Below are positions 12,001 to 15,000 of a stretch of DNA of 28,160 bases, one piece after another. A program made the position numbers. Each line of letters opens with the position of its first letter. Positions within the stretch are counted from its first letter, which is position 1. Source of the stretch: a virus (taxonomy: Duplodnaviria > Heunggongvirae > Uroviricota > Caudoviricetes); IMG/VR virus record IMGVR_UViG_2703718843_000004; one strand, written 5' to 3'.

Positions 12001-15000
12001 GAGCCTGTCGCCGGTGCGTCATCGCTCAATTTTGGAGATTTTGGGGAGTAATATTTTGGTAAGGCTTCAAGGTTCATGCTCGTTCTCCACTTACGCCAAT
12101 ACGCCAATTGCCAGCGCACGATCGATAAAACGAAATATCAGCTCCAGCTGAGAGCCATACTTCTCTTCAAATGCCACGGTATCCGCATGCAGCTCGTCGT
12201 GATGCTTTCTGCACAAAGGCAACACAAAGAGGTCATGCGCTTTTGTACCCATTCCACCCTGACCGTGGCCTATCAGGTGGTGGGGATCATCAGCAGGCTT
12301 TCCACAACATGCACACGGCTGTGTCTTAACCCAGCGCGTGTACTTTTCATTAACCCAGCGGCGGCGTTTTGGGCGTAACATAAAAGACTCCGGCGACTCC
12401 GGATCCACTTTCAGCGCCAGCACCTTTTTCGCTTTATCCTGTATGATGCTGGTGGCAGGAACCGAAGGCACAAGGTCACTTTCCCGGGTGACAGACGGCA
12501 CAACAGGTTTCGGTAATCTCAGCGCCTTACGGGCTGCGCTTTCAGGTAAGGCATCCGCCAGGTCATTACGAATCAGCCACCAGCACAGTTCCGGCATTGT
12601 CACGGCATGGTTATCATCAAAACCGAGATCCCGACGGACTACAGACAACACCCAGCGGGCACAGTTATCCGTTGCCATTGATTCCAGCCGTTCCGTGAAC
12701 TGATCGCGCAGCTGGTTATCGCAGTGCCAGCACAGACGGATTGCGCCCGGAGCGTGTCGCATTGTGGTCATGTTCTCGCTGTGCCAGTCGGAATGAGGCC
12801 ACTGGCAGCCTTTTTCACGAAGTAACCAGCTTTCAAGACATTCCACGCCACCAGCACGACGGATCACTGCCTCATTGCGGAACACGGCCCGAACGGCAGG
12901 ATCATCCGCCAGCGGTTGTGATGCCGCCGGAACGGCACCACTGGCGAAAGATGAATAACGTTCCGGCTCAGGCTCCAGCAGGACACGCCCCTGCATAAAC
13001 AGGGGCATCAGCTCTGAACCTGGCCTGAACAATACGATCCCCATACGCGGGGCAATTTCAGGGGTCAGTAGTGCTCTCACGGCCACCTCAATGAACGGTA
13101 TCGAGCAGCTTTAACAGCTCAGGGAATCGGGATTCGAAGAAATGCGGCTGCGTCTCGCGCGGATTTGCTGGACTGGTGATGTTCTTGCCGAACATGCAGC
13201 CTTTCGCCGTCAGCGACCAGAATTTTTTGATGTTGTTAATCCCGGTACGGCTGTATCGTTCGCGCTGCTCGACGATCCCCAGCTTCACCATCTGATGATA
13301 TGCCTGATTAGCCGTCAGGCGGATACCATACTGTTTCAGCAGTGCACTCAGTGACAGTGTCGGGCGACTTGAGCCATCGTGTGCATCAGCAGGAGCATCA
13401 ATGGCATAGCGCGGTGCCAGATTCGGTAAGCCAACAGCCTCCTGGAGTTTCTGACAGGCCCCAAGCACTGAAGAGTTAGACAGGTTTAACTCCCTGCGCA
13501 TAAAGTCCAGCAGAATCACTCCAGCCTGCATCTTGTCAGCAGCCTGCCCGGATAATTTTTCCGGTGTGCTGGTTACCATATCGAAAGTACGGATCACCTT
13601 CAGATGGAATGACGGGCTGATCCACATTGCATAGGCATACACCAGTTCTTTGCAGACATACGTCCCCTGGTTATTTCCGCCATTAATGACGCTAACTGGT
13701 TGATTTTGTTCCAGAGGCGGAATTCCACCCTCGGTGAAAAGTTGTTCAATCAATTCACAGGTTTGCTTATTGGAGAGCCAGTATTTCGGGCGGTTTTTTT
13801 GTTCTCCCCCGGCTGCCCTGTGCAGATCGTTCAGGCTGTAACGCCCATAAGCATCACGACGAACTTCAATACCATCAATGACCATCAGATTATTCATACT
13901 TCGTTTCTCCTCTTGCTCAGGCGGCTGCACCCGCCGTTTTCTCGTACTTACTGATAGTGATCTCGACCTTCCCTTCCGGGATAACCGGTCCCCACTCCAC
14001 CAGCATTCTTTTCACCTGGCTGTCGTCTTCCCACACACCCGCGTGGGTCAGAACGTCAAACAGCGCCTTGTTATAGTTGTCCAGATCGCGGATCCTGTTA
14101 TCCGGAGGAAACAACACGATCTCCACTGAAGCAGGTGCCGACGTTGGTTTCGGCAGACGACGTAACTGTTCAACTATTGCTGCGCACGCCGCGCTCTGAA
14201 ATTTTCGCCCCGCCGCGCTTATCAGGCTCTTACCTGCAAACGCCCCTTTGTTGGGGTGTCGCCAGTACGTGTTCACGCTGGGCGGGAAAGGTAGGATCAG
14301 CTTCATACTTTCAGGCCCCTCTCATGTAACCAGTGGGCTGCACGCAGCCTGGCGTTTTCCTCACCGGCAAGCAGTGAGCGGATAATCCCGACCGCCTCGC
14401 TGTCGTCGTCCTTCACCGCGGTATGAAGAGTGATACCCCGGGCCACGCCACGCTTTATCGTGATGACGCCTTTTTTCTCCAGTGCGCGAAGATGTTCCAC
14501 CGCTGCATTCACTGAACGGTATCCCAGCATGGTTGCCACCTCCTGATTGGTTGGCGGAAAGCCACGTTCTTGCTGGTAAGAAATCAGCATATCCAGCACC
14601 TGCTGCTGGCATTGAGTTAACGTCGTCATTAAGCCCCCACGTAATTCCCTGACAGATACCACTCTTCACCCGATGCAGCGCGCTTGCTGCTTTTCCGTAA
14701 GCACCGCTCACGACGCGCCAGAAAATTGTTTCGCTCTTGCTGGGAGTGGCTTTCACGGAATGCCGCCATCCACACCGTTGCAGCACGACGGTATAAGCCC
14801 CTGGACTCCAGTTCTTCCGCCTGGCGGGTCAGGCTCAAAATCTCCCGCGGGTCGTTAGTGCCGACATAGAACTTGCGCACAGGTCTGGTTTCACGAACTG
14901 GTTGTGGTTCCGGCTCCTGCGCTCTCTCAGTCAGGCGTGGGAAATGTCTGCGTGTATCTCCTTCACAACGGTGAGCCACACGCCCACTCTGACGTAACTT

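Follow-up and report, generated by a model that had tools for sequence, protein, structure and literature searches.

A prophage-borne LexA DNA-binding domain without the S24 autocleavage domain and with a predicted C-terminal helical hairpin

Introduction

What can a phage do with the DNA-binding domain of LexA if the autocleavage domain is left out? The question is raised by an open reading frame (ORF) of 108 amino acids on the minus strand, at 14303..14629, of IMG/VR virus record IMGVR_UViG_2703718843_000004. This 28,160-nucleotide stretch of Caudoviricetes DNA, analysed over its whole length and called the window throughout, is an SfV-like lambdoid prophage of Escherichia coli, and the gene surroundings of the ORF are 100% identical to a prophage of the sequence type 131 (ST131) strains JJ1886 and JJ1887. 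The ORF starts with an ATG at 14629 and ends with a TGA stop at 14303-14305. Its product, referred to below as the LexA-like protein, is a phage-borne LexA DNA-binding domain without the S24 autocleavage domain. It belongs to PHROG 362, is annotated by PGAP as 'LexA family transcriptional regulator' and equals WP_023363277.1 of E. coli JJ1887.

Non-cleavable LexA, for example the G85D variant, blocks SOS induction, and the isolated N-terminal fragment of LexA binds operators specifically but weakly. Among the possible roles of the LexA-like protein we rank first, tentatively and on the evidence of its sequence, that of a protein which binds SOS-type boxes in lytic growth and is proof against RecA.

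Results

A LexA DNA-binding domain without the peptidase domain

The preliminary description of this locus had proposed that a LexA DNA-binding domain is present and the peptidase domain missing, and both parts of the proposal are borne out. The Pfam family LexA_DNA_bind matches residues 1-65 over its entire length (profile positions 1-65 of 65) with an E-value of 2.6e-19 and 69 bits, the cutoff of the family being 23.7 bits, and the same profile search returned no match to Peptidase_S24 (PF00717) anywhere in the 108 residues. An alignment with LexA and a structure prediction had been suggested as checks. In a phmmer search against the PDB the top match is 1lea, the N-terminal domain of E. coli LexA (E = 7e-16), and the alignment pairs residues 2-69 with residues 2-69 without a gap, at about 50% identity. 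The AlphaFold2 model, a monomer prediction built on 16 family members with a mean predicted local distance difference test score (pLDDT) of 79, superposes on the same LexA domain at 1.4-1.8 Å.

In this model residues 1-69 (14423..14629, minus strand) form a LexA-type winged helix-turn-helix (HTH) with helices at residues 6-22, 28-35 and 40-52 and two wing strands at residues 56-59 and 65-68. The sequence of the recognition helix is R38-S-V-N-A-A-V-E-H-L47, and the wing residues R64-G65-I66 of LexA are retained. Similarity to LexA had also been claimed for the full length of the ORF. This stands for the winged helix and, weakly, up to about residue 90, but not for residues 76-104, which form a family-specific hairpin. 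The lexA equivalog profile TIGR00498 scores 70.5 bits, below its cutoff of 110.95, and is matched over positions 1-91 of 203 only.

Given the biochemistry of LexA, the lack of both a peptidase domain and a cleavage site suggests that the LexA-like protein would not be cleavable by the RecA-stimulated route and would thus be insensitive to RecA.

A conserved tail in the place of the S24 domain

The C-terminal tail, residues 70-108 (14306..14422, minus strand), begins with a flexible acidic linker at residues 71-75, which is predicted with low confidence (pLDDT < 50), and continues as an amphipathic two-helix hairpin whose helices, residues 74-87 and 93-103, are both modelled with confidence. 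Within the close family the positions I82, I83, L86, L87, N92, A93, R96, A97, W100, L101, E103 and R104 are fully or almost fully invariant, and the pattern can still be recognised in full-length relatives at only 38-49% identity, which retain the architecture of 104-112 amino acids, tail included. Searched alone, the tail gave only insignificant matches in the PDB and in Pfam. Residues 70-108 are not a simple truncation: in the predicted structure a conserved hairpin stands where the S24 domain would be. LexA dimerises via its S24 domain, and the amphipathic hairpin may be a dimerisation module that replaces it. The hairpin thus bears on how a protein with no other domain than the DNA-binding one could bind a palindrome.

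HMMER carries the LexA alignment weakly through residues 77-90, where IIRSLLAGE is paired with VGRVAAGE of LexA and A88-G89 falls on the Ala84-Gly85 cleavage site. Because the alignment reaches residue 90 (LLAGE against VAAGE), the gene probably derives from a lexA gene that was truncated just after the cleavage-site region. That the autocleavage site itself has been kept in the tail was considered and rejected. The Ala-Gly pair is not conserved, G89 being replaced by N in five Citrobacter-type members and A88 by V in one, and it is missing in most of the distant relatives; moreover, the segment is predicted to be helical (pLDDT about 88) and not an extended strand that docks into an S24 active site. 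The same two findings stand against a decoy or pseudo-substrate, in which the Ala-Gly-Glu of the tail would be cut in trans by S24 peptidases (host LexA, UmuD or prophage cI) or would inhibit them. LexA and lambda cI are capable of cleavage in trans, and both the HMMER pairing and the TIGR00498 match, which extends to residue 91, speak for such a role; we nevertheless consider it very improbable.

Purifying selection and distribution

Pairwise ratios of non-synonymous to synonymous substitution rates (dN/dS) among five copies of the gene (window, SfV, SfIV, cdtI and 2H10) lie between 0.02 and 0.42, synonymous changes outnumbering non-synonymous ones. On account of these ratios and of the architecture kept in divergent phages, the LexA-like gene is a real working gene under purifying selection. 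Of 5426 complete E. coli genomes, 2233 (41%) have the 327-bp gene at an identity of at least 90%, some of them in as many as four copies. A captured lexA gene that is decaying and serves no function would fit a protein shorter than LexA and labelled 'unknown' in the original SfV record, but this explanation is effectively refuted by the conservation: selection on the sequence, the tail-bearing architecture kept at 38-49% identity, the presence in so many genomes and the conserved position and gene overlaps all speak against it.

Fifty phage records carry the gene, including SfV (orf42), SfII, SfIV, mEp460, cdtI and phages encoding the Shiga toxins (Stx) Stx2a, Stx2c and Stx2k. The protein is 96-100% identical to the annotated SfV orf42 and to the mEp460 'LexA DNA binding domain protein', and PHROG 362 ('transcriptional repressor') matches it over the full length (residues 1-108 on profile positions 1-106 of 106, E = 2.2e-59, 199 bits). 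It is a bona fide member of this family, already annotated, very common and functionally uncharacterised. E. coli K-12 presumably lacks the gene, the CPS-53 remnant keeping yfdN, and this apparent absence may explain why it has not been studied. Our literature search found no functional study of the enterobacterial PHROG 362 family, and PADLOC gave no meaningful defence-system match for the protein. A survey of Stx phages names the gene as a pham and does not discuss it further (PMC8136144). Among the 131 representative protein matches, 29 are short proteins (P0127-P0249) that lack S24 and have two LexA_DNA_bind domains in tandem.

DNA-contact residues and the predicted operator

The residues of LexA that contact DNA are S39, N41, A42, E44 and E45 (PMC3091678). 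Four of the five are kept in the LexA-like protein, which has S39, N41, A42, V44 and E45 at these positions of the gap-free alignment, and the contact residues would thus favour CTGT-like half-sites. It is because of this recognition helix, with S39, N41, A42 and E45 in place, that binding to SOS-type boxes is ranked first. The tail hairpin would then most likely pair two subunits and so bring two winged helices onto an inverted repeat, most likely one of the CTGT type that resembles an SOS box. During lytic growth the protein could act as a RecA-insensitive transcription regulator that refills LexA operators emptied by cleavage of host LexA, both those of host SOS genes and two strong boxes in the prophage itself. 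In effect it would behave as a phage-made LexA(Ind-).

A LexA-like recognition helix might also be put to use in a LexA antagonist, which would occupy SOS half-sites or boxes without effective repression, or block the cooperative binding of LexA dimers, so that SOS stays on longer, RecA activity is prolonged and induction is favoured. The lack of the LexA C-terminal domain is in keeping with this, since it leaves neither a LexA-type dimer interface nor a heterodimer with LexA. However, a protein bound to an operator that overlaps a promoter normally represses, the conserved tail argues for a stable oligomer over a weak half-site binder, and no data point to activation. We regard an antagonist as improbable.

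SOS-type boxes in the prophage

A search of the prophage for SOS-box-like sites, which the preliminary description had suggested, brought up two near-consensus boxes. The window contains three perfect CTGT-N8-ACAG sites. Scored with a heterology-index matrix of about 21 E. coli operators, the values of which are indicative and not exact, two boxes are of operator quality with indices of 3.1 and 5.5, while the best score in 30 shuffles was 9.7 and the next site of the window has 14.2. The stronger candidate for a LexA-type operator, TACTGTATGTAAAAACAGTA at 18415-18434 (index 3.1), falls in the part of a cI-type repressor ORF (18206-18898, plus strand) that encodes the linker joining the HTH and S24 domains. 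The second candidate, CACTGTTTATTTTTACAGTA at 10014-10033 (index 5.5), covers codons 3-9 of a minus-strand gene for an N6/N4 DNA methyltransferase (8989-10041), which lies downstream of Q.

Both sites recur in related phages. When the cI gene is compared with that of locus L010, to which it is 84% identical overall (mean column identity), the box stands out, with 18 of its 20 bases unchanged, from a linker that has diverged elsewhere; its counterparts lie at 836-855 in L010 and at 17310-17329 in L011. No convincing promoter was found on either strand at the cI box. The methyltransferase box is still there in phages with no more than 72-83% identity in this gene, including a Providencia phage at 72% nucleotide identity, with counterparts at 34170-34189 in L002, 44083-44102 in L004, 9314-9333 in L011 and 5442-5461 in L012. 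By this pattern of conservation both prophage boxes are clearly under selection, and the conservation of the methyltransferase box implies that the late-region methylase would be under LexA control. The boxes of other carriers of the LexA-like gene are limited to a dinI gene in cdtI and 2H10 and to a site upstream of a variant KilA-N gene in SfIV.

The LexA-like gene is present in every one of the 13 phage records that have this cI type and of the 27 E. coli or Shigella phage records that have this methyltransferase, a co-occurrence that physical linkage within one phage lineage would produce. We rejected the possibility that the two boxes are dedicated operators of the LexA-like protein, as they occur in phages that lack the gene and divergent carriers have no box nearby. 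Because boxes and gene are dissociated in both directions, host LexA alone would suffice to explain all these boxes.

SOS boxes or a private operator

Several findings weigh against the SOS-type box as the target. GIL01 gp6, the only characterised phage-encoded truncated LexA homologue, and hence the sole analogue, that our literature search found, binds its own palindrome and not LexA boxes (PMC6182141). The methyltransferase box is found in both Citrobacter phage phiNP and Providencia phage PSTRCR_117lys, and phiNP also carries a box inside its cI-like gene, yet neither phage has a LexA-like gene between cI and the lysis genes. Conversely, the divergent loci L006-L009 carry the LexA-like gene, and all sites within 6 kb of it have an index of 14 or more. 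As to the recognition helix, position 44 is Glu in 12 of 16 long LexA-type matches and is never Glu in the 12 tail-bearing representatives, which have A five times, F three times and T, L, V and Y once each. Positions 42-45 as a whole differ among members of the LexA-like family, unlike those of orthologous LexA proteins, which are bound to one regulon; such variation would be expected of operators that diverge together with their proteins.

These observations also bear on a private regulator, in which the captured LexA fold has diverged to an inverted repeat of the phage's own and times the lytic genes from there, as an activator or repressor of one or a few phage promoters. The systematic replacement of contact residue 44 and the variation at positions 42-45 speak for it, as do the absence of any correlation between the LexA-like gene and phage SOS boxes and the treatment of the protein by PHROG and RefSeq as no more than a generic phage transcriptional repressor. 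It has an experimental precedent in gp6 at the late promoter P3 of GIL01, a tectivirus of Bacillus thuringiensis. There, gp6, a protein of 66 amino acids described as "a truncated LexA homologue" and consisting of the DNA-binding domain only, binds the palindrome GaCACAnnTGTGaC, which overlaps the -35 element of P3, and activates this promoter, while host LexA together with gp7 represses (Fornelos et al. 2018, PMC6182141).

Against a private regulator stand, first, the retained S39, N41, A42 and E45 and the degree of identity to the N-terminal domain of E. coli LexA, unlike the situation in gp6, and second, the presence of Q, by which late transcription is already switched in lambdoid phages. 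Third, no candidate for a private operator was found in the window. A de novo scan for palindromes with arms of 4 and 5 nt and spacers of 4-12 gave none that could be attributed to the LexA-like protein, and the gp6 operator motif, CACANNTGTG, occurs 0 times. We judge a private regulator to be a real possibility, which we place close behind binding of SOS-type boxes.

Two groups of palindromes from the same scan deserve mention in their own right. TTGC-N7-GCAA sites at 18171, 18954 and 18978 flank cI, with a single site between cro and cI and a pair immediately downstream of cI, and are probably the OR and OL operators (cI/Cro) of this immunity type. TGCC-N8-GGCA is found six times against 0.34 expected, scattered in coding DNA at 2179, 3804, 11916, 12922, 20138 and 20889.

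Gene neighbourhood and expression

Upstream of the LexA-like gene lies a PerC-family (yfdN-like) gene (14629..15117, minus strand), the TAA stop of which shares one base with the ATG of the LexA-like gene (TAATG), and a GGGGG run resembling a Shine-Dalgarno sequence is found 5-9 nt upstream of this ATG. Translational coupling to the PerC-like gene, as proposed earlier from the sequence, thus holds in this window. On the downstream side the start of the gene for a RusA Holliday-junction resolvase (13917..14306, minus strand) overlaps the stop of the LexA-like gene (ATGA).

These genes are part of a run that is tightly packed on one strand, with several overlapping stop and start codons. From the packing and from lambdoid synteny it appears to be the delayed-early rightward operon (11325..18108, minus strand). 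Its order is cro-like HTH, CII/CP76-like, Rha/Ash, a small ORF, a replication protein (HTH_36/DnaD_N), PerC yfdN, LexA-like, RusA, KilA-N, DUF968/HNH and Q antiterminator; Q is followed by lysis and head genes. We could identify no promoter ahead of the LexA-like gene. From its position the gene would be delayed-early and its product made only after induction or infection.

The arrangement is widespread. An order of replication gene, optional PerC and methyltransferase genes, LexA-like gene, rusA, antirepressor-like gene, DUF968 and Q recurs at LexA-like identities of 44-49%, and an early-right or nin-like placement, usually just upstream of rusA, is found in the window, JJ1887, SfV, SfIV, cdtI, 2H10, the divergent loci L006-L010 and mEp390. 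An exception to the adjacency is one Klebsiella phage, which has the LexA-like gene without rusA. In SfIV (L003) the rusA gene beside the LexA-like gene is split by a frameshift (12199-12594). The same phage has a strong intergenic SOS box, TACTGTATTTATGAACAGTA, at 12640-12659 upstream of its variant KilA-N gene, which looks like a LexA-controlled arrangement of the antirepressor type.

In most relatives yfdN and the LexA-like gene are separated by a phage dam gene of 654 bp. This N6-adenine methyltransferase gene (14727-15380 in locus L001) is a clean, cassette-type indel placed exactly between the stop of yfdN and the start of the LexA-like gene, at the junction at 14629 of the window. It is present in JJ1887, SfV, cdtI and mEp460 and missing in the window, SfIV, 2H10 and two Stx2c phages.

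Other features of the window

Immediately past the prophage integrase (22330-23496), genes for an AAA ATPase and for a D12 adenine methyltransferase match the PADLOC defence pair PD-Lambda-5 (PD-Lambda-5_B, E = 6e-124) and are followed by a second integrase ORF; the plus-strand ORFs of this region are at 23504-25288, 25368-26267 and 26395-27768. A run of N, masked or unresolved, occupies 3212-3367 in the phage head-gene region.

Discussion

The consequences of the two leading explanations differ. If SOS boxes are bound, many E. coli strains, among them ST131 and lysogens of Shiga-toxin phages, carry an uncleavable paralogue of LexA. The SOS response that follows prophage induction could take a different shape under its influence, with effects on the induction of Stx phages, on mutagenesis and persistence and on the cross-talk between co-resident prophages. 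If the target is a private operator instead, the LexA-like protein would be the second independent case, after GIL01 gp6, of phages turning the LexA fold into a timing regulator.

A stronger form of SOS-box binding can also be envisaged. As a phage-made, RecA-proof agent that silences SOS again after induction, the tail-dimerised protein would re-occupy SOS boxes throughout the genome, including the cI and methyltransferase boxes of its own prophage, and thereby silence LexA-controlled toxins, colicins, antirepressors of rival prophages and SOS-induced defences. We think this extension unlikely on the present sequence data. If it were true, a widespread and unrecognised layer would exist in SOS dynamics and in the competition between prophages, considering that the gene is carried by 41% of complete E. 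coli genomes and by Stx2a, Stx2c and Stx2k phages.

How does the LexA-like protein compare with known systems? With host LexA of E. coli (TIGR00498; PDB 1lea and 3jso) it shares the N-terminal winged-helix fold, the contact residues S39, N41, A42 and E45 and the R64-G65-I66 wing. It differs in having neither the S24 domain nor the Ser119/Lys156 dyad nor a conserved Ala-Gly site, in the exchange of E44 for V and in a score below the equivalog cutoff. A helical hairpin of its own replaces the C-terminal domain, and the gene sits in a delayed-early phage operon and not at an SOS-regulated chromosomal locus.

A second comparison is with the products of LexA autocleavage and with LexA(Ind-) variants. 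The LexA-like protein corresponds to LexA 1-86 followed by about 20 further residues, and like the Ind- mutants it should not be open to inactivation via RecA. The natural fragment 1-84, a weak and monomeric DNA binder, is cleared by ClpXP; the LexA-like protein, in contrast, is a stable, selected gene product with a C-terminal module of its own.

A third comparison is with GIL01 gp6. Like the LexA-like protein, it is a LexA DNA-binding domain of a temperate phage that has no peptidase and matches PF01726, and it is expressed with early or replication genes, as the LexA-like protein probably is. It has no C-terminal hairpin, however, and its recognition helix is diverged (S-H-K-T-A-H-R-Y-L), with K38 at the position of LexA N41, where the LexA-like protein has N41 as in LexA. 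GIL01 is a tectivirus of a Gram-positive host, whereas the LexA-like gene belongs to an enterobacterial lambdoid phage with Q antitermination. BLASTP found no alignment between the two proteins, and because of this lack of pairwise similarity the two captures were probably independent. Proteins of this kind are thus already known from the precedent of gp6, and the LexA-like protein would be an independent, enterobacterial member that carries an extra module.

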